A stretch of DNA of 64,000 bases, from assembly GCA_951406725.2 (NCBI GenBank), contig OX597817.1, positions 2,232,001-2,296,000 of the forward strand, read 5' to 3'. Positions within the stretch are counted from its first letter, which is position 1; each line of letters opens with the position of its first letter. This DNA comes from Octopus vulgaris (lineage: Eukaryota). Position numbers and translations under genes: made by a program. The notes under the pieces are model-generated. The model was given only the letters and a program-made list of their open reading frames with translations, was not told the DNA's origin and did no database searches. Below, piece after piece: positions 1 to 52,905 of this stretch.

Positions 1-717
1 GCCTATAATGACATCTATCTATCTATCTAACTGTCTATCTATCATTGTGTGCTAATAAGTATGAAAAGCGATAAATTTTCAGAGTCATCTAAGAGACAGA
101 TAAACGGACCATGTTCCTTTGCTCTGAGCTCAAAGGTCCAGTTCGGCCGAGCCCAGTTTCTCCTCTTGTCCTACCATATCCAATGCAAACTAAACCAATC
201 AAATACTACGATCAATTGTACTCACTCTCTCTCTCTCTCTGTGTCTCTTTCTCTCTCTCTCTCTCTATCTCTATCTCTCACTCATTCTCACTTTCTCCCT
301 AACTCTCCAAATCTCGAAAAGTGTCATAAGGGACTATATACACCAATCCGTTCTCCAGTAAAGGAGAATAGTTGGGGCGAAATGCTACAAACTTTTCTGA
401 TTGCAAATAAATAAATATACAGTGAAATAAATAAACGAAAAAACTGATATTCTACTCTAACTGTCGACGGCAGCCTGATGTGCAGCACAGCAAGGACCGC
501 AAATAAAGAAGAAAAAATAGTGAATGAAATATATATGTGTATGTGTGTGTGTTTATGGTTCCATGAATGGTTGGACGTGTTTATGTGCACACACACACAG
601 ATTTATTAGATTGACTGCAACGGGTCTAGAATACTGTATACATTGATTAATATATCTATTCTATAAACAATATACGAGCGCTTATATTGCTGGATTCTTA
701 GACTGTATAAATATAAG

Positions 718-761
<44 letters not shown>

Positions 762-820
762 ACATAAGAAAATGGAGAAATACATCGTAATCAAATATCA
801 ATTATAGTTAACTTTCTGTG

Positions 821-888
<68 letters not shown>

Positions 889-966
889 CATACATACATA
901 AATACATACATACATGCATACATACATACTTATTGAGGCCCTGGGATATGGAACACACTGGCTAAA

Positions 967-1760
967 TATCAGGTCAAGTATGAAATTTGTAGAAAACAAA
1001 AAAAGTTTGCAAATGTTTTATAAATACAAGGAATAGTTTTATTCATCAACATATGCACCCATATTGCCAATACACTTTTGGTATTTCTGCGGTAGTTCGT
1101 CCAGCACGGAACTGTAGAAGCCTGGCAATCTAGAGTCAATAAAATCTTGGAAGGCCTGTTTTACAGCATTGTCGGAATTAATGGTTTAATGAAATCATAA
1201 TGGATCACACCTACGCCAGACCACCAAACACACACCATCAGCTTCTTTTGATAAATTTTGTTTTTTGGACTGATTTGGTGGCTCGACTTTGTCCAACCAT
1301 CGTTTGCGGTTGTTGTATTGAATCCATTTCTCATCACATGTTACAATTCGATTCAAAAATTATTCATTTTTGTGACGAGAAAATAGCATAATGCAGGCTT
1401 TCAAACGTTGCTGTTTCTGATTTTCATTGAGTTCATATGGAACCCACTTATCCAACTTTTTCACATTACCGATTTGAACTAGGTGAGTCAGCGAACAATA
1501 ACAATGATTCGCGGACACTTTGAGATGGATCTGACTCGATGGTGGCTTTCAATTCGTCATTATCCACTTTTGATTCTGGTCGACCGCGTTGCTCATTTGT
1601 GAGGTCAAAATTACCAGAACGAAATTTTGCCAAAGAACGTGATACTGTCCGCTGTGTAATAACATTAGAGTGGAATACTCCATTAATATTCCGATCTGTC
1701 TGTGATGCTGTATTTCCAAGAAAGAACTTTATAAAGCTTCTCAAAACTAGAAAGGAGAAA
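967..1760 (-). mobile_element. Mariner DNA transposon remnant, internally deleted transposase
   Basis: Minus-strand translation gives the HTH region (KFRSGNFDLTNEQRGRP), KLDKWVPYELNENQK (WVPHEL motif), FLNRIVTCDEKWIQY (first catalytic D), KLMVCVWWS and the C-terminus VKQAFQDFIDSRLPGFY...KYQKCIGNMGAYVDE*. The HDNA and YSPDLAP segments are missing. Confidence 0.85.
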
Positions 1761-1914
1761 ACTGATTCGAAGATTACAGATCCAATCCATCGCTGGAACT
1801 GTAAAAGTCTGTAAAACTTTCAAGAAGTTTATAATTTAAATATATATGTGCATGATTAGATATGCAAGTATGCGCATGAGCATACATACATAAAACAAAA
1901 TTTACAAATCTATA

Positions 1915-2061
1915 TACCTACCTACCTACCTACCTACCTACCTACCTACCTACCTACCTACCTACCTACCTACCTACCTACCTACCTACCTACCTACCTA
2001 CCTACCTACCTACCTACCTACCTACCTACCTACATACATACATACATATATACATACATAC
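1915..2061. repeat. (TACC)n grading into (TACA)n microsatellite
   Basis: Read directly from the sequence. Confidence 0.95.
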
Positions 2062-2172
2062 AAAAATAGCCTGTTGTTGATGTTGAAATTCCAATGAAGG
2101 AGCCTTGGGTCTAGGTTAGAAACCGGTTCTTTCTCTATTGGCAAGAATCTTAAAGTAAAACTGAATAATGAC
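2062..2172 (+). mobile_element. 5'-truncated 3' UTR of an RLE LINE inside (TACA)n
   Basis: ggagccttg...gttagaaaccggttc...cttaaagtaaa aligns by eye with the 3' UTRs of the RLE elements at 27730-27802 and 28843-28895. Flanked by TACA repeats. Confidence 0.65.
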
Positions 2173-2194
2173 ATACATAAATAATACATACATA

Positions 2195-2234
<40 letters not shown>

Positions 2235-3119
2235 TGTGTGTGTGCATGTGTATATATATATATCATATTCGCTTGAAGCTCATGATTCATTCTATATCAT
2301 TACACAGAGGTTTTTAGCTATATACAATCTTCCAGAAATATTGCATTTAGCGAGAAACTGATTAGAGGCAGAGTAAATTCACACACATGCACACACTTAC
2401 ACACACATATGTATGCATAAATGAGTCTATACACACATACATACATACATGAATAAATAAATACATACATGCATAAATAAATACATACATACATACATAC
2501 ATACATACATACATACATAAATACATACATACATACATACATATATATATCACCATTTACAGCAGTGTTTTATGTCTGCTTACAACACCGGGATGAGTTG
2601 GACGGTTGGTTAGGGTTCAAGACTGTTCTTAATTGGAAGACATAACCTGAATAAGAAATGCGTCGATCCGTGACGACACAACCGACCCATGCCAGCATGG
2701 AAAGCAGACTTTAAATGATGATGATAATAATTACACACACACACACACACACACACGGATACACGTACATATACATTTACATAAACATATACATATGTAT
2801 ATATACATATATACATATATACACACATACATATACGTTTATATGTGTGTATATGTGTGTGTATCTATGCATATATGTGTATATGTGTAGGTATGAAGGT
2901 ATGTATGTGTGTTTACATACACATACACTCACACTACTCTGACACCCACCATTTCCCGCGAAACAAACACACAGTTGGTTGTGGATTCCTTGAAAAAGAA
3001 TCGTGTTAAGTTCGCATAAATATAATATGTGAATGACGAAGCTGATAACCGGAGATAACCGGCTGTAAATTGCTGTACCTTTTGCAGAACACACACAAAT
3101 AATTATCAGCTAAGAACTT

Positions 3120-3470
3120 AATGGCAAATAACTTTGTTAGTTTCTCCACCTTAAACTTTAACATAAACACATTAAGAAATTCCTTGCTTCCAATACTTGC
3201 ACATTAAGCATACACGGTAAGTAGAATTTTCCCACTTGGAATCTAGTTGCCTTCAACGTCTCAATTAGTAAATTGTTTATGGAAGTCGCGCAGATTAGGT
3301 GTATGAAAATTTGAAGACTCTTCAATTAAAATAGTGCACCAAGTTGCAGTGACAGACATATGTGGAATGAATACATCTCCTTTACCGTGTTTAGAAAGTA
3401 CTGTAGTCTCGATAACATAGACTTTGATATTTGTATATTCAGCTTTGTTCAATTGTTGAGACGTGAAGAA
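3120..3470 (-). pseudogene. Degraded Helitron Pif1-like helicase C-terminal fragment
   Basis: VIETTVLSKHGKGDVFIPHM resembles the Helitron VIEATILTG..GEDVFIPRI motif. The downstream SINN...TLKA resembles the SINKSQGQTLK motif. Confidence 0.5.
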
Positions 3471-17943: not shown

Positions 17944-18062
17944 CAGTAGTTTTATTTTTATAGCGTGCTTTCACTTCACTACCGAGCGCAGCTCTGTGTG
18001 CCTTGGGTATGTGCTGTGATTTGTTGTGATGCTCTGATGGTTATTGTATGGAAAGTGTTCTG
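17944..18062 (-). mobile_element. R4/Dong-like RLE LINE 3' end, copy 1, inside (TAA)n
   Basis: Near-identical to the 3' ends at 18266 and 20640. (TTA)n flanks both sides. Confidence 0.85.
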
Positions 18063-18265: not shown

Positions 18266-18268
<3 letters not shown>

Positions 18269-19195
18269 TAGTTTTATTTTTATAGCGTGCTTTCACTTCA
18301 CTACGGAGCGCAGCTCTCTGTGCCTTGGGTGTGTGCTGTGGTTTGCTGTGATGCTCTTATGGTTCTGTATTGAAAGTGTTTTGCGTAGGATGTGTGCAGT
18401 GCCCAGTAGTGCAATTTTTCTGTGTTATATATATTTGTAAGTCCTGGTGTTTTTGTTATGTATTTGTCTGAATATTTTTTATCATACATAATGCACCCAC
18501 TATGATAGGAATTATTTCCGTTTTTAGATTCCTCATTCTAATTATGTCTGTTTCCAGGTCTTTTTATTTTGAGAGTTTCTCCATTTCTTTTAGAGACACG
18601 TTGTCATCTGCCGGTACTGATACATCAATTAGAAAGCATTTTTTTCTTCATGGTCTCTGACAACTATATCTGGTCTGTTGGCCTTAATTTCTCTATCTGT
18701 GTGTATCGGCATATCCCAGAGTATGGTTGCTTTCTCGTTTTCTGTGACCTTTTCTGGTGTGTGCCTATACCATCTTTTTTCTGTTGTTATTCCATAATGT
18801 TGGCATAGCTTCCAATGTATGTAAGTTCCAACTCTGTCATGTCTGTGAACATATTCTTTCTTAGCCAGGACTGGGCAGCTAGAGATAATATGATTTATTG
18901 TTTCTTGTCCATCTCCACATATTCTGCAGTTACTTGTTATATTTCTTTTCATTATATGTTTTTGCTAAGTTCTGGTGGCGAGGTTTTGGTCTTGTGTTGC
19001 AATTAAAAATCCTTCTGTCTCTGCTTTGAGTCCTGAGCTTCTCAACCATTGCTGGGATTTTTCTCTGTCAATTTCTTTTGCGTTTAGTTTTTGCCATGAA
19101 GGGGCTTTTCTTGCCATCGGTTTATCAAGGTCCGTTCCTGTTCTAGTTTTAGTTTGGATTTCATTTGTTTTATAGTTTTTGTTGTTTCTTTCATC
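18266..19195 (-). mobile_element. R4/Dong-like non-LTR retrotransposon, 5'-truncated (CCHC + restriction-like endonuclease)
   Basis: ETEGFLIATQDQ, CRICGDGQETINHIISSC (CCHC), YVHRHD, ILWDMPIHTDREIKANRPDIVV and the downstream IDVSVPAD...EK. The 3' end joins (TAA)n. Confidence 0.9.
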
Positions 19196-20639: not shown

Positions 20640-20931
20640 CAGTAGTTTTATTTTTATTTTTATAGCGTGCTTTCACTTCACTACCGAGCGCAGCTCTGTG
20701 TGCCTTGGGTATGTGCTGTGATTTGTTGTGATGCTCTGATGATTATTGTATGGAAAGTGTTCTGCGTAGGATGTGGGCAGTGCCTAGTAGTGCAATTTTC
20801 TGTATGTTATATGTGTTTGTAAGTCCTGGTGTTTTTGTTATGTATTTGTCTGAATATTTTTTTATCATGCCTAATGCACCTACTATGATAGGAATTGTTT
20901 CTGTTTTCAGATTCCACATTCTAGTTACCTC

Positions 20932-27169: not shown

Positions 27170-27802
27170 ACATACTTACGTACATTGATTAGCAGCTGTC
27201 CTAAAATGACGTCACGGTACTACCTCCCTATGCGGCACGATGTTGTTGCTAAAACGATTTACAATGCCATCCGCAACAAAACTGTCTTGAAATAAACCTA
27301 GAAAATCCCTGTTATGGAATACTCAGGGAATATTAGTGGAATATTTCCACCAAAACGTCTGTGAAATGTAAACATATCAGGCCGGATATTGTTGTTTGGG
27401 ACAGCCGGGGACAGACGTATGCACCATCATAGAGGTCAGCTGCCCTGAAGATATAAATATCTCTTCGAAAATCAAAGAAAAAGAGTATATTTATGGACAA
27501 CTGCTTCGAAACCTCCAGCTTTTTTATACAGACTATGAATTCATATTCATACCAATCATATTTGGAGCACTATGTTTTGTTAATAAATGCTTAAAGGAGA
27601 ACCTGGATGAACTGGGTTTTTCAGAAAGAGAAACTGACCGGCTGATTTGTACATTACAAATGTAATCTGTGAGTGGAAGAGTAAAAATAAGTTCCAAATG
27701 TGAATTGTCTGTGTTAACTACATCCCAAAGATGGAGCCTTGTATCTTTGTTGGAAACCGGCTCCCACCTTAGTGGAAGATTTATAATAATAAAAATAGAT
27801 GA
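27170..27802 (+). mobile_element. RLE LINE 3' part ending in (TACA)n
   Basis: ISSCPKMTSRYYLPMRHDVVAKTIY, KCKHIRPDIVVWD, CTIIEVSCPEDINISSKIKEKE and FIPIIFGAL, then a 3' UTR running into tacatacatacatac. Confidence 0.85.
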
Positions 27803-27825
27803 TACATACATACATACATACATTT

Positions 27826-27910
27826 ATATATGCAGGGCAGCTGACCTCTATGGCGGTACATAGCTTTGCTCCTCTGTCCCAAACAACAATATCTGGCCTG
27901 TTATGTTTAC
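27826..27910 (-). mobile_element. Inverted short fragment of a related RLE domain between TACA repeats
   Basis: The minus strand encodes CKHNRPDIVVWDRGAKLCTAIEVSCPAYI, a diverged homologue of 27365-27455. Confidence 0.8.
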
Positions 27911-28020
27911 ATACATACATACATACTAATGGAATAACAATAAAAACATCGTAAGGGGTATCAGCCATCTGAATGTGGCTAGCCACTGGGGGGGGGGGGG
28001 TTACTGATGCTTTTAGCCCC

Positions 28021-28330
28021 AGGCGATCAACGTCACCAGAAGGACTTTAGACACTATCTCAGTGTCCTTGTGTTACTTGCAAAGGGAGGTCATCCTCCCT
28101 CGAAGACCCGAGTACAACATACGGACTATAGTTTCAAGGTAATTGCCTCTCGTCAACGCATGGTAAGAATCGGTCTTCGATGAAGGAGTCCCCTCGCAAG
28201 TAATATATAATGTTTTTCACAGTAACTACTGTCACTGATGTAGAAAAACTGTCTGAAAACAATAATAAATGCAAGTAACACAAGGACACTGAGATAGTGT
28301 CTAAAGTCCTTCTGGTGACGTTGATCGCCT
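28021..28330. repeat. Perfect 61 bp inverted repeat (28021-28081 / 28270-28330)
   Basis: aggcgatcaacgtcaccagaagg...gtgttacttgca and its exact reverse complement, with a ~190 bp spacer. Confidence 0.95.
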
Positions 28331-28430
28331 ATAACAGAAGACACTTGCCCAAGATGTCACACAGTGGGACTGAACCCAGAACCATGTGGTTGGTTAGCAA
28401 GCTACTTACCACACAGCCACTCCTGCGCCT
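28331..28430 (-). mobile_element. SINE family B head only
   Basis: Reverse complement reads ggcgcaggagtggctgtgtggtaagtagcttgc...gggttcagtccc. Confidence 0.85.
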
Positions 28431-28431
28431 A

Positions 28432-28895
28432 TATGTACTGTTTTAGAGGTCAACTGCGAAGCGAATGTGAATGTACACTCAAAAGTTCAGGAAATAGAGA
28501 GCATCTTTGGTAAATTATTGCGGAATTTACTGCACGCGTACTCTGACTGAGAATTCTCATTTGTACCTTGCATCATAAAGGCATAAAGTTATGGTACCAA
28601 AAATTTTACTCAGAAATCTTGAAATATTCGGTTTCACCGAAGAACAGCAAAGGAAACTAACGCGGATTCTCCAAATTCAATCTATTAGTGGCACAGTGAA
28701 GATTTGTAAGGCATTCCAAACATTCTCAATGTGAGATTCGTATGTGAATAGATGCTCACAGTTGAGGGATGCAATCAACACGCCAACTCGTCCCCATATT
28801 TACAAATACCGTGAACGCTCTTAACTCAAAAACCGTCTTGTTTTGTTAGCAGCCGGCTTGAACTCTCTTGGAAAACTTAAAGTAAACTCTAAAAT
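28432..28895 (+). mobile_element. RLE LINE 3' part ending in (TCAC)n
   Basis: CTVLEVNCEANVNVHSKVQEIESIFGKLLRNL...LEIFGFTEEQQRKLTRILQIQSISGTVKICKAFQTFSM* is homologous to 27418-27705. The 3' UTR runs straight into (TCAC)n. Confidence 0.75.
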
Positions 28896-29127
28896 CACAC
28901 TCACTCACTCACTCACTCACTCACTCTCTCACTCACTCTCTCACTCACTCACTCACTCACTCACTCACTCACTCACTCACTCACTCACTCACTCTCTCAC
29001 TCACTCACTCACTCACTCACTCACTCACTCACTCACTCACTCACTCACTCTCTCACTCACTCACTCACTCACTCTCTCACTCTCTCACTCACTCACTCAC
29101 TCTCTCTCTCTCACATACACACACACA
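28896..29127. repeat. (TCAC)n microsatellite, ~200 bp
   Basis: Read directly from the sequence. Confidence 0.95.
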
Positions 29128-29248
29128 TTTTGGTAGAATTCGCGGCTGTTGCAATTGTGAGTTATGCCCGTGGGTGCAAAGGGTCTCCTAGCGGAGTAGC
29201 AAGGGACTCACTCGGCCAGAAGATAAACATCATTAATCTCTACTCTCA

Positions 29249-29436
29249 AAGGCGGTGAGCTGGCAGAATCGTTAGCATCCCGGGCGAAATGCTTAGCAGT
29301 ATTTCGTCTGCGCTATGTTCTGAGTTCGAATTCCGCCGAGATCGACTTTGCCTTTCATCCTTTCCCCGTCGATGAAATAAGTACCGGTTACTCATTGGAA
29401 TCGATATAATCGACTTACCCACTTTCCCCAAAATTT
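29249..29436 (+). mobile_element. SINE family A
   Basis: ggcggtgagctggcagaatcgttagc...gagttcgaattccgccgag...gcctttcatccttt. Confidence 0.85.
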
Positions 29437-29528
29437 TCAGGGCATTGAGTAGAAATAATTATTAATCTCTACTCTTTTTTTCCTGGTATCCAGCACTAAA
29501 TGAATGTGTGTGTGGAGGGGAGAGAGAG

Positions 29529-36527: not shown

Positions 36528-36569
36528 AATGCACAAAGCATAAATAGAAGCAGACTTCCATCCACAATG

Positions 36570-36840
36570 AAGCAGCAGGACTACATTGCAGCGGGGTTAA
36601 ACTTTTAGAAGCCTTTGATAATATATTGCATGGTTGGACTACCAAAAGATTTCACTTAGCCAATCGCCGCAATGTCGTCATTCATCACTTACTCAACACT
36701 TGGCATACCACTTTACTTCTCAAAAGTGAGGACAAATAAATTAAATCTGATACCAAGCGAAAAGGCATCATGCAGAGCGATAGCTTGTTTGTGCTGCGTT
36801 TTTATCTTCATATTAAACGCCATTTGTCATACTTTCTCGC
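36570..36840 (+). pseudogene. RT fragment of an R4-like RLE LINE
   Basis: EAFDNILHGW...HLA and KGIMQSDSLFVL resemble KAFDSVPH.W and .G.QGDSLS.LLF. Confidence 0.45.
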
Positions 36841-37719
36841 AACACATAGTAATTATAAAAATAAATCCACAAATATCTTTCATATTTTCCGTGTAGACCA
36901 CGTGAAATTGTATAGGCCAAGTATAAACCATTTTACAGGGGAAATCAGATATATCCGATTATAATTTCCTGTCTTTTGTTGTGGAATGGCATGCTTGAAA
37001 CTGGCATGAAAATGGCATGAAAATGGCATACTTACTGATATCACATGACTTGCAAAAGTTACGCATTCTACTTTTGCTGATATTTAAGATTAATGAAAAT
37101 TGATTTCGAAGATAAAGCTTTAACCACATTAAAAATCAATTAGATTTCTAAACTAAGTTTTCCACGAATACTGAGATGAAATTTGATTAATCCAAAAGTG
37201 CATTTTGGGTGATAGACGTGGAAAAACTTGTGTATCTCTGAAATGTGAGTGTGTGCCCGTGTGTATGTGTGTCTGCTTCTGTGTGTGTGTGTGTGTATTT
37301 GAAAATGGCCTAACAACACTGGTGTAGGTAAGAACTCCAAATATCTTGGTCGAATGACAATGTGAAGAATGACACACCCATTAATAGGTCTGCATAAAAT
37401 GTATACCTAAAAAGAGTAAAGATGCGACCATTAGAATTCTAAACCTATTGTAATAAGCATATCTGGCCTTTTGAACTACTAAATACAAGAACTGGAGTTT
37501 ATAACTATAAGAACTCACAAACTACTCAGAACTTACGAGAATTTAAAAAGTCAATGGGGATTTAAATTGATTATATTTCCCAGACTGGATGCCATGGCCT
37601 TAAAATCGGTTTAACACCATACTTGATTTAGATTGTAACTCTGAAGTAACAGCTCTCTTTCACTTTAGTTTGTGAGCACGAAATTAGCAAACATCATAAT
37701 GGCAATAATGAATTTGAGT

Positions 37720-39050
37720 AGAGGTATGAACCACGCACTAACATAAATCAAACATCAGGTAAGAGTACTATTTAATACTGCAGCAAAATAACGTAGAAAG
37801 CTGAGCCCGGTTTTGACATGGTTATCTAAAGTAAAAACAGAAATATTGAGGTAGTAAGTTACAACAATATCTCAATATAGAGTAAGTTTATAATCTATAA
37901 ACACGAAAATCAACTTCATGCAATCTATGAGCAGGAAATTCTGAAAATTTACCTACTGCACAAAATAGAGGAATGATCATCTGAGAGTAAATGTAGATTA
38001 TGAAGAACGAAAATATAAATGCTAAAAAATAATTGCCGATTGTGAAATAATCTCCTCTATTCATTATCTTGCTGTGGGACCTATATTCATAGTCAAAACA
38101 ATCTGGGGAAGGAAAACAACCCCGCCTTCCCCCCAAAAAACACAAATGAATATACTGAAAGTCATTGATTAAAAAGATATTAGTGGAGCCTTTAGGCAGT
38201 AACTAAATTACAACACAGTCGATTTGATATTTGAAAAACACAGAAGATTTGTTTTATACAACTAAAAATATATTAGAATCGGCATAGCAAAAGTATTATA
38301 CAATATTATAGAAAATAAGATTTTTCTTCTAACATTAACCTGTTTTGCTAACGCTTTTCAAAAGTTTGAGTGTTGGATACAATTTGGAGTTAGAGATTTT
38401 ATTTGCTGGGGGGGGGGGGTAATTGTTAACCTAGGTATTTTTCAATAAGGGTGGTGGTGGAAAATCTGTTAGTTTTATTATTGATTTGTATTTGATTCTG
38501 GCTTATATCAATATTAACTTCAATAGATGGGGGTAAATCTTTACTTTTCAATATGGGATTATATTTAATTCTGGTTTATATTTTTCGATAAATGAGGCCT
38601 CTTTGTTTAGTCGCACTTATGTTGAGGTCCAAAGGGCAAAATGATATAATGGGAAGATTAGGAATTGTGGTTGCTGTTGTTCTGCACATCTACCAATGTG
38701 TTCACTGAGATATATCTGGCGATATCGTGGGGAAGATATCTGTTGTCTGTGAACTGTACATCTTCGTCTGACAGACATTATTGTAGATAATATATAGTTT
38801 GTATGGCACCCCGAGCATCTGATTACATAAATGAGGTTTTCAGAAGCGCAAGTGAAGTTGAATTTAATTTTGAAATTTTGTCCTTGTCTAAAATGGAATT
38901 CTGATCCTTCCAAAAGATGGGGACATATTTTGCAGTTAGAACGACCACATTTATTTTACTCTTGCGTCTGTTATTCGTGAGAATAATTTAGCATTTGTGA
39001 GGATCTTCGTTAATGTCTTTCGTTGTTTACTGCTTTTTAATGGTTTTATG
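37720..39050 (-). mobile_element. Penelope-like element 3' part with GIY-YIG endonuclease
   Basis: KCGRSNCKICPHL, then ORF 38617-38913 FTCASENLIYVIRCSGCHTNYI...RRRCTVHRQQI...LSEHIGRC, followed by an AT-rich terminal region. Confidence 0.85.
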
Positions 39051-40540: not shown

Positions 40541-42368
40541 AATGAGGGGAAATACAGGGATTAGCGGTTTTACATGCTGCCATCGAAACCGCTAATATCG
40601 AAGGTAAGAAAGAATGGTCAATAACGTATTGCGGGGTAAATACAATAAGGTTTGGAGTCAAAATCTGTGAAACTCCACAATTATATGCACATACGGAGGC
40701 TCGAACAAAACACATATTGCAGTTGCAGATATGTATTTGGTGTGTGTATGTGAGTGTGTGTGTGTGTGTGTGAGTGCCAGTGTACCTATGCGACACTGAG
40801 CGTGTGTGTGAGTGTATGCGTGTATGTGTTTGTTTGTGTGTGTTGTGTGTGTGCACATTTTATATAGATGTGCATGTGCACATACGTGTGTACTTATAAT
40901 TATAAATTTGAATGTGCATGAACGTCTTCACACGAAATGATTAATCAATTCATATCGAACATACCGCTGGCTGATATCAATTTAATCAATTTATGGTGAG
41001 CGCAATTCCTGACAAACATTTCATGGCTAATGTAAGGGAGATAACAATTAGTATTTTCTTATACGTTACCTCCCATGATCTATATATTTATTGTACAGGG
41101 GGTATGTAGGCGCTATTCGAAAGCTGAAAAATGCGAAGCGCATCGTGACGAGCAGTATATAACAGCATCCGATGGTCTGTTTGGTACCGTGATACACACA
41201 CAGACACATACGATACATACATCATACATACAGACATGCTCAGCCGCTACACGCAAGTGAATATGGTTTGATAGCTTGAAGCACCCGCTTCAGGTGCCTA
41301 TTCAGGTACGTATTTAGGTACCTACATATTCTTTTAGATGACAGTGTAGTCACGTTTAAACAGACTTTCACTTGCCGCCCCCATCCTTGCTCCATTGTGT
41401 ATATGACAGTTGAAGAGAGAGAATGATGCACCAATTCTAGGCTGGTACAACTGAGTTGTAAGATAAAGAGAAATGCGGAGTTATATTCAAGGGTACAACG
41501 AGCCACCATGTCTAAAAATCGAACCTACAACTTTATGATCAACAGCCCAACACCCTTACCTCTAGACCACATGTCTTCATAAATTCATACACACACATTA
41601 CATATATACGTACATACTAGAAAGTGTATTGTATCCTTTCAAGACTTCGACAAAATGCTCGCATAACAACCCAGACGGGATGAACTGGGACGTAAACTAG
41701 AAATTATGTACAGAAGTTAAAATCAGTTGCTTTGTAGACGTTGACGTAATGTTAATGAAAAGATTAGAGGAAAAGAAAGCATGTATGCAGAACTGATGAG
41801 AAATTTGCAGTTACTCCATCCGGGTTACTAACTGCCTCAGTACCAATCTTGAGGAGTTGAATTTCATAAAATAGAAGGGGCAGATCTAATCTGGAGATTA
41901 CATCTACAGACTATCAAAAGAAATGCAAAACGTAGAACATTCAAGAAGTTTAGCATGTAATAAGATTCCCATACGCATTGACATCCATTCCTGCATTCAT
42001 GTCTGCCAATGACACACTCGCGATATACATACACCGAGATATAAATACATGCACACCCCCACATACGCATGCATACATGTGTGCAAGCATTCATACACAT
42101 ATACATGCATACATACATATATATTTGTGCACTTGATATAACGTCTTCATACTATCTCGATGTCATTACATCACAGATTTCAACTATGTCTGTAACTAAA
42201 TACTGCAAGGCATTTTGCTCGATGCTTTAACTATTGCACTAATTCGCCACTCTGAGTTGTGCAATAACAACATCCATCTACATTGACCCAACGGGAGGTG
42301 GAGGCTCGGGTTGCTAGAAGTAGAGAAAATTTTCTTTGCAAATTACACGTTCGCACTTTGAAAAATAA

Positions 42369-50154: not shown

Positions 50155-52905
50155 AAACTTAGATAACCTTAGATATGTTTCGACCAAAGATTGGTCCAGG
50201 CCATGTCTAACTTAATAGCACCACCTGATAGGATTATTCGAATCCTGTTTAAGTCAAGTTTTGTTTATGGACCATTCAAGTAGTGAGTTCTTGTTGGGTG
50301 AGTTGTATCCAATTATGGGTGGCTTATCTGGTATTCTTTGAAGGAATCTATCCAGACTCCGTTTAAAGTTGATGGGATCCTGTTCCTCTTTGATCTCTTT
50401 CGGGACAATGTTAAATAGGGCAGGGCCTGTTGAGGAAAAGAAATTATGTTGCAGTGTACATGTATACTGTGCTCTTGAATTGGGCAGGGGACGTATGGCA
50501 CGTGGTCCCAGTCTTGGATGAACCTTGAAGCTAATGTTCAGGTCGTTTGGGCAAAGTTGGCGGTATATTCTCCACATCGTACAAATGATGTACCGCTCAC
50601 AGCGACGCTGGAGAGAGTAAAGTTTCAAGGCTTTAAGGCGATCCCAATAATCGAGAGCAGCCATGCCTTCAATTCGTTTAGTGAGTGCCCTCTGGGGTGA
50701 CTCAATCCTCGAGATGTTTTGTCTCGTATGGGGAGACCACAGTGAGCAGCAGTATTCGAGGTGTGGCCGTACAAAGGAGGAAAAAGTGGTATGATGACAC
50801 CTTGTTCTCTGGACCGGAAAGTTCTTAAGATCCAGGAACTCATCCTACGAGCTATATCGACCTTCTTGTTGATGTGTGCACTCCAACGGAGATCGTCATC
50901 AACAATTACACCCAGGTCTCTGATATTGTTAGAGGCTGTGAGCGGTTCCCCTGAAGGAAGAGAGTATGGCTGTTTTAGTGAGGAATTTCTTCCAAAATGC
51001 ATCAGCTCAAATTTTCCCTCGTTCAGTTGCATTTTGTTTCTGTCTGCCCATTGACTCACAGCATATAGATCAGACTGGAGTTGAGTTCGGTCTGCTTCTT
51101 CATTGACGATTTGCTGGAGCTTAGTGTCATCAGCAAATATTTTCACTTTGCAGTAATGTACGACACTGGAAAGGTCGTTTACGTAAATTATGAAGAGTAG
51201 CGGACCCAAAACAGTTCCCTGGGGAACACCGCTGGTGACTTTTGCTGGGTTTGAGTGGACTCCATCAACTACAACATGTTGTGTTCTATTCGCCAGGAAA
51301 TACTTAATCCAGTGTAGAACTTTTCCACGGATTCCAACATTTGCCAATTTTGAGAGTAGAATGTTGTGGTCTACCCTGTCGAACGCTTTACTGAAGTCAA
51401 GATATATGACGTCAGAGTTCGAACCTGTTCCCAAGGCTTTGAGTACATCTTCAATGTGGTGTAAGAGCTGTGTTAGACAGTCCCTGCCACAGCGAAAGCC
51501 ATGCTGATTTGCATTAAGGAGTTTGTGGGTCTCCAGGAAGTCAGCTATCCTTGATCTTAACACTCTTTCAAACACTTTAATGATGTGGGAGGTGAGTGAG
51601 ATTGGGCGATAGTTGACTGCGAGGGATCTGCTTCCCTGTTTGAAAACCGGGATGACTGACTAGGATAGAAACTGTTTCGGTATATAACCTGCGTCTAACG
51701 AATTTCTCCAGAGGTTGGTCAGAGGGACTGCAAGCTGGTGTCTACATTCCTTCAGGAGACTAGCGGGAAATCTATCAGGGCCTACAGCAGAGTAGTATTT
51801 GACCTCATTTATTGCTGCTACGATGTCAATGGCAGTGAAAGTTATGTCTGAGATTTTATGTTGGGAGTCAACTTCGTTCGCTTCTCTTACGTCAATATCA
51901 GTGGGAACACTAAAGACAGAGCAGTATTGTTTCTGCAGTATTTCTGCCATTTCTTTAGCATCGTGTTGGGGAATGCCGTTATCATCAATCAATGGCCCAA
52001 TGGGTGAGACAGTGGTTCTATGCTTATTTGCATAAGAATAGAACACTTTTGGGTTCTCTTTGATGTTTTTGATTACCCACTGTTCCTCCACAGCTCTTTG
52101 ATTTTCAATGGAGGTTTTCATGTCGGTCTGCAGATGAAGTTTTTCCAGCTTTAGCCTTTTCATTGTTGTTGAATGTGGATGTTGTGTGTGGGAATATTTT
52201 AATTGGTTGATTTTTTTGTTGAGTCTTTTGATGCGCCTGATGAGTGTTTTTTTTCTTTTTAGGGAGCCGGTTTCTGTTTGTGTTAGTAGATTTCGTGGGA
52301 GCGTGTTTAGAGCATGTATAGGTGACAATGTATTCAAAGTGCTGGCATGCGGTCTCAATATGGGTGGAATTGAGAGTAAAAGTCCAGTCGATGAAAGACA
52401 GATCCTTTCTGATTGCTCCCCAGTCCGCTTTGTGGAAGTTTATGTTGTCAAATGGGTGCCATGGAGTGGGATTGGCTGGTTTGGTTTTTATATGTCGGGA
52501 ATTAAAATTGCAGAGTATCATGTCGTGGTCTGAGAGGAGAGTTTTTTCAACTGAAATACTGTTAACGAAGCTAGAGAGATTGGTCAATACCAGATCCAAG
52601 ATCGTTTTATTCTGTCTCGTTGGTTCAAGCACTAGCTGAGTCAGGAAGTATTCATCCATTAGATTAAAGAGCAGTTCTGCTGCTGCTCTATCTGATGTAG
52701 AGCATTTGCCTAACTTCAGAGTATTTGTGGGCCAGTTCACATGAGGGAGGTTAAAATCACCCATCACTAGTATGTTTCCGGAGTGGTACTTCCGAAGGAA
52801 GGACTTGACTTTGCTAAGGCACTCTTCAAAGCACTTTAGAGGTGCTTGGGGAGGCCTGTAAAGACCGACAATGATTATGTCCTTGGCCTTACACACACAC
52901 ATATA
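50155..52905 (-). mobile_element. CR1-group LINE, 5'-truncated, ORF2 (endonuclease + RT) with few lesions
   Basis: EN motifs GLYRPP, MGDFNLP, PTR...LDLVLTN and SDH. RT motifs NYRPISLTS, QHGFR, YLDFSKAFD, GVPQGTVLGPLLF and FADDTKL. The ORF track implies one in-frame stop (51660) and two frameshifts (~52250, ~50770). Short tatctaag tail. Confidence 0.95.

Follow-up and report, generated by a model that had tools for sequence, protein, structure and literature searches.

Non-LTR retrotransposons of the RLE type that sit in a microsatellite, as do the elements described here, include Dong of Bombyx mori, DongAg and DongBg. The accessible sections of two papers give TAA as the target of Dong and ACAY as that of Waldo (PMC3812793), and place Dong elements in the R4 lineage, with an HDV-like ribozyme in Dong (PMC3774820). 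R2 (R2Bm and R2Tg), with its TPRT model, is, among solved structures, the best match in both structure and sequence for the branch that holds our three Octopus vulgaris families, A, B and C; R2 targets 28S rDNA with zinc fingers and Myb, whereas in alignment A1 the proteins of the A–C branch show no zinc-finger motif at the N-terminus. R4-clade elements carry an N-terminal Myb-like domain without zinc fingers. Waldo is an APE-type element of the R1 clade. Families A–C share a target with it through an unrelated endonuclease: the ACAY microsatellite of WaldoAg1, WaldoAg2 and WaldoFs1, as given in those sections, includes the CATA repeat.

Compared with Dong, the RT of the A–C branch is 33–39% identical to a group of insect proteins, one of them from Bombyx, the target is (CATA)n rather than (TAA)n, and the branch stands apart (100/100); TAA-flanked Dong-like copies coexist with A–C in the same window, by which we mean the whole 64,000-nucleotide stretch that was analysed. 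The supplement of an O. vulgaris paper, in the part available, lists 51 'Dong-R4' families amounting to 92.7 Mb (PMC13282606), and A, B and C are probably among these annotated families. The accessible main text of that paper uses neither 'target' nor 'tail', the portion of the supplement searched has no CATA, and literature searches listed no R4 element targeting CATA or CTTA; repeat libraries may already record the families or their targets. We consider it very probable that A, B and C are three decayed sister families of the R4/Dong type that lie in (CATA)n at both ends, likely inserted there by design, and that a TCAC array behind the window's copy of B is a single-locus exception, probably a mutated CATA/CA tract.

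Three LINE families in one window

The A copy (27188–27802, plus strand), decayed, 5'-truncated and 82% identical to the long natural copy in locus L092, lies between a degenerate CATA tract at its 5' junction (27170–27187, plus; locus L031) and (TACA)5 as its 3' flank (27803–27822, plus). It retains the end of a zinc knuckle, the motifs RHD, RPDIVVWD and IEVSCP (RLE), and a short 3' UTR. After it, within the CATA tract, comes a 91-bp piece of a different family-A copy in inverted orientation (27822–27912, minus; 85% to 27366–27455), which runs contrary to the usual strand rule.

The B copy (28429–28896, plus), also decayed and 5'-truncated, comprises an RLE C-terminus (stop codon at 28732–28734) and a 3' UTR, and has as its one-off 3' flank a CACA-(CTCA/CTCT)n-(CT)n-CACATACACACACA array (28897–29128, plus). 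Its 5' junction is unreadable in the window because it is overwritten by the opening ~100 bp of a SINE-like repeat present in many copies (28329–28428, minus) and by a MITE-like nested element (28021–28330, no strand assigned) with perfect 61-bp terminal inverted repeats (28021–28081 against 28270–28330, 100%). This 310-bp element had only one other match, a partial one, among the own-genome loci examined. Just past the TCAC array, a tRNA-type SINE-like repeat was recognised by eye (29236–29470, plus).

As the original prediction held, the RLE C-termini of A (27417–27690) and B (28431–28734) are homologous (tblastn E 7e-16, 49% over 51 aa), and A, B and C share a 3' UTR motif that reads as first described, each pairwise alignment beating 500 of 500 shuffles. 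The C sequence at 2062–2172 had been taken for an orphan UTR, which it is not. It is the terminal 111-bp module (plus strand) of a 3' UTR that follows an RLE C-terminus at 1738–1830, with the C-terminal end and first UTR part together spanning 1736–1914 (plus) and an internal repeat tract, mostly (CCTA)29 then CATA, occupying 1915–2061 (plus). Both A and C had been said to run directly into (TACA)n; A does so, as (TACA)5, while the CATA flank of C past 2172 (2173–2194, plus) is short and imperfect.

Family C is a full LINE, with an RT 45–50% identical to that of A, and its long copies run from the ORF through ~80 nt of UTR and a CATA tract of variable length to the 111-bp module. The family thereby holds its own target repeat within its 3' UTR (in the window at 1915–2061; also at L125–L128, L129, L130 and L052), and other copies have inserted into this internal tract. 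C UTR was found within 800 nt upstream of the module at 19 of 30 loci, and none was detectable at the other 11, which are SINE-like in look. An independent SINE is disfavoured as the identity of the module by those 19 loci and by the motif common to A and B; the lone modules are more simply read as truncations within the internal CATA tract.

Searching the genome (2.8 Gb, 227 contigs) with the DNA of the three ends gave 4245 first-look candidates for A, 1610 for B and 615 for C, and all three are high-copy families with hundreds to thousands of copies. For each family, 40 candidates were scored and the best 30, window copy included, were taken as loci, which are best-scoring matches and no random sample. 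L092 holds a near full-length A copy of ~3.5 kb with one decayed ORF encoding an N-terminal domain, RT, CCHC knuckle and RLE; a single ORF with RT, CCHC knuckle and C-terminal RLE is likewise present in intact relatives of 1130–1200 aa. This architecture, together with R2 proteins as the best structure and sequence matches, supports the predicted identity as R4/Dong-type RLE LINEs. In RT searches the next-best matches past the elements' own branch were a Dong-like group, as placed in trees without named R4, Dong, Rex6, HERO or NeSL references. No intact family-A ORF was found among 150 RT candidates scored, where the longest element-derived stop-free frames reach ~380 aa.

The 5' ends of L153–L173 share with two metagenome relatives, L194 and L195, a short hairpin and then GGAYGTG right behind the target repeat; in A copies and in L194/L195 the hairpin shows no compensatory changes and its folding energy is weak. 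A search of 5' ends for an HDV-like ribozyme was negative (no Rfam match in 8 loci, 0 descriptor matches in 6 copies), the sample consisting of copies ~20% decayed, whereas R4 and Dong elements carry one.

Relatives flanked by TAA and CTTA

A search with longer proteins recovered two groups: a close one at 44–58% identity, with Argonauta hians (GAB1597890.1) among its hosts, and a distant one at 33–39%, to which Bombyx mori belongs. In a tree of 27 rows (RT to C-terminus, LG+G4, no outer outgroup; a 66-row quick tree was also built), the three families group as a single clade (100/99), within which A and B pair (95/90), and the split between the close and the Dong-like groups has 100/100. When the tree is rooted on the Dong-like group, CTTA occurs to either side of the CATA clade, most rows being without a known target, and the CTTA elements do not form one clade (p-AU 4.5e-6).

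The CTTA elements come from metagenomes, in which 80 loci were found and the ends of 27 inspected. Dong-like metagenome loci with a readable 3' end run mostly into TAA and in a few cases into related trinucleotides. Five long loci, L194–L198, fall in the close group. Sense-strand (CTTA)n lies at both contig ends of L195 (1–100 and 4822–4869), at the 5' end of L194 (1–56) and L197 (1–40), and at the 3' end of L198 (4651–4694); L196 has no (CTTA)n at its contig ends. The ORFs of L194, L195 and L197 are intact (1153–1165 aa), and in L194 and L195 the CTTA array adjoins a short hairpin motif resembling the 5' end of A. The 3' CTTA arrays lie ~1.05 kb past the stop codon and could be flank; at the nearer 3' end of L194 there are only about two units. 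The four CTTA elements may come from one host.

Dong-like LINE fragments with (TAA)n are present in the window itself, all on the minus strand: at 20640–20931 and, as a 3' fragment, at 17944–18062, both with (TAA)n on both sides, and at 18266–19072, ending in (TAA)n and with an approximate 5' limit. Decayed R4-type fragments (36563–38109 and 41638–41828, plus; 31–50% to protein P0007) and a distant RT fragment (51012–51683, minus; 24% to P0007) were also seen. Among viral contigs, 58 pattern matches included none that was related. Prokaryote genome contigs gave six loci, the two long ones being Dong-like in the tree; L275 (NZ_BMSF01000045.1) and L274, which lie on short contigs in bacterial assemblies, are Dong-like retrotransposons from animals and probably contaminants.

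The original prediction of a lineage diversified across several tetranucleotide targets thus fails for TACA and TCAC but finds a counterpart in another pair, CATA here and CTTA in the metagenome relatives. The actual series would be TAA, CTTA and CATA, of which the CTTA/CATA part is a lead with chances about evenly balanced. We would give equal weight to the truth and the falsity of the fuller proposal that these elements form an undescribed deep R4 branch, sister to the TAA-targeting Dong, that lives on tetranucleotide microsatellites and whose target has changed by one base, with (CTTA)n in several lineages and (CATA)n here.

CATA at the 3' and 5' junctions

At least two CATA units follow the 3' end at 22 of the 30 A loci (six others have one, two are CA-only), at 20 of the 30 B loci (five with one, three CA-only, one with none, and one, the window copy, with CACT) and at 27 of the 30 C loci (two with one, one CA-only). 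Genome-wide, the B anchor followed by (CATA)3 gave 95 matches, which a hand count reduced to ~67 places, including one that is not B-like. With (CACT)3 within 25–50 nt of the B anchor there was a single match in 2.8 Gb, the window copy. The A anchor followed by (CWYW)3 matched 443 times genome-wide, and among the 100 of these matches that were listed none had two consecutive CACT or CTTA units. A ratio of 67 to 1 would be compatible with B accepting CACT as well, because CACT arrays are rare: evenly spaced stretches totalling 200 kb contained 26 CATA, 19 TAA and 16 TAGA arrays and 0 of either CACT or CTTA. B is not TCAC-specific; avoidance of TCAC does not follow from the counts.

These figures bear on the possibility that recognition is relaxed, the protein accepting a loose C-A/T-Y-W or CA-rich repeat, with B having entered a pre-existing CACT array and the difference between CATA and CTTA reflecting the repeats that each host offers. 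The CA-only flanks (6 of 90) would fit, as would the near absence of CACT and CTTA arrays here, and host availability would account for four CTTA families that are not one clade and yet share a repeat. Recognition is not generic, however, since TAA and TAGA arrays are common and no 3' end runs directly into either (0 of 90 loci for TAA, none among the family loci examined for TAGA). Also against this reading, the B junction reads CACA then CTCA, and the array still has a CATA unit at its distal end. We regard relaxed recognition as unlikely.

The 5' junctions speak to whether the repeat is a target or a templated tail. For family A, 59 loci were examined, of which two ran past the locus edge; among the 57 scored over 30 nt upstream, a set that includes the duplicates L036/L037 and L113/L117/L122, 28 are CATA-rich on the sense strand and none on the opposite strand (p 2e-14), against a background for CATA-rich 30-nt stretches of 2.4% in the window and 9.5% locally. 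The corresponding figure for B is 17 of 30, with one on the opposite strand. The junctions without CATA (29 of 57 for A, 13 of 30 for B) belong to truncated copies, and some of these calls, though not all, are alignment stops and not true ends. With about half of truncated 5' junctions free of CATA, targeting is a strong preference, not an absolute one. Full-length A copies have a common start in 18 of 25 loci, which reduce to 14 independent ones after two duplicated trios are merged, and all 14 have 3–7 CATA units in the 32 nt upstream. Copies in the same orientation are nested head-to-tail in one another's CATA flanks. An unbiased 200 kb sample contained three copies, two with CATA on both sides, and is too small for a junction tally.

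Because CATA is found at 5' junctions too, and on the same strand, it appears to be a target and not only a tail, as the original prediction had proposed for the microsatellite; CATA as the sequence-specific insertion site of A, B and C is well supported by the flanking sequence. Were it a templated tail, copied from the 3' end of the RNA, the 5' CATA would have to come from tandem template jumps or co-transcribed flank. Many copies do lie directly behind another's CATA flank (L014, L038, L055 and L091), no empty site was seen, and no target site duplication was detected across 18 pairs (own 12.9 against cross 12.8 nt, p 0.46, with false 3' anchors in two rows). But randomly truncated copies, with break points from 606 to 3121 of the reference, have CATA upstream as well, the upstream partner is often of another family, and no neighbouring element is evident in the flank shown upstream of, for example, L039, L054, L099 and L111. 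We therefore think a templated tail very unlikely.

In the upstream flanks of L065, L071 and L177, another repeat, ending ...GACCTGAC, meets CATA repeats and may be a further CATA-associated family.

The TCAC array and recognition of the repeat

The original prediction was that B belongs to a subfamily whose target switched from (TACA)n to (TCAC)n, and we give this almost no credence: the window copy does end in the only CACT array of the window (against 16 CATA arrays) and is only 73–80% identical to its best genomic relatives, but its (CACT)3 match is unique genome-wide, a second TCAC pattern had 0 matches (it is unable to match the window copy either), none of the 29 other B loci has a TCAC tail, and B 5' junctions are CATA-rich in 17 of 30 cases and CACT-rich in 0 of 30. 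Flanks do not segregate by subfamily, CACT occurring only at this one B copy.

The likeliest origin of the TCAC array is a CATA tract that was converted where it stands, from CATA to CACA to CACT, with expansion. An array is indeed present where the prediction placed it, but (TCAC)n is not all of it: the junction opens with CACA, a CATA unit remains at the far end, and the array closes ...CACATACACACACA. At 13 of 90 loci, at least four units of a non-CATA tetramer (CCTA, CATC, CAGA/GATA, CATG and others) lie within 150 nt of the 3' end; among the 13 are the window copy, two TATG arrays on the reverse strand and a GAAG run that is unrelated. The C tract in the window is itself (CCTA)29. A contig of sequencing run X2 spans 28795–28909, into the repeat, and in X6, from another, more distant organism, single-contig depth reaches 28912 among the differences listed, the mapping of four runs to 28430–28912 being swamped by paralogues. 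These contigs suggest, weakly, that the array is real and old, and they do not catch the conversion in progress.

By analogy with R2, the element's protein would bind the repeat, likely through an N-terminal three-helix domain together with the RT region and not the RLE alone, and would nick the TATG strand. Reverse transcription would be primed on the conserved 3' UTR and would often stop early, and a target duplication inside the repeat would be invisible. After insertion, the flanking repeat would mutate and re-expand as CCTA, CATC or CAGA, or, at B, as CACA and then CACT.

The accessible sections of a paper on R2 ascribe site recognition to its N-terminal domains (PMC11204384). If R2 is a guide, it is doubtful that the RLE domain sets specificity, as had been supposed, and the N-terminal three-helix domain is probably its main determinant. 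The predicted model of the L194 protein (pLDDT 89) has R2 TPRT structures as its best structural match (E 8e-35), R2 is also the best sequence match among solved structures (E 1.6e-51), and the C-terminus of A, used by itself as a query against PDB sequences, gave 0 matches. Three N-terminal helices are modelled at residues 20–73 (pLDDT 82–90 in the full model). A separate model of this domain (pLDDT 56) matches the Sap1 DBD (Z 5.9, rmsd 3.8, 72 aligned), ISWI (Z 5.7) and the Zeste DBD (Z 5.5), all matches being below Z 8, and Foldseek returned nothing below E 0.001 for it; the predicted domain weakly resembles a Myb/SANT-type fold.

LINEs that target microsatellites were already known, and the proposed switch is a single-copy artefact. 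A lone LINE tail is poor evidence of a target, because 13 of 90 flanks contain other repeat units. What remains is a CATA target in three families, for which the literature searches found no record in the R4 clade, with relatives that combine a repeat one base different, CTTA, with intact ORFs. RLE retrotransposons are under development for gene insertion. If the proposed series is real, the CTTA-flanked intact ORFs of L194, L195 and L197 would be a natural series for studying how a single ORF reads a short repeat, and, should the protein encode the difference, the CATA/CTTA pair would offer a clean handle on target recognition by RLE retrotransposons.
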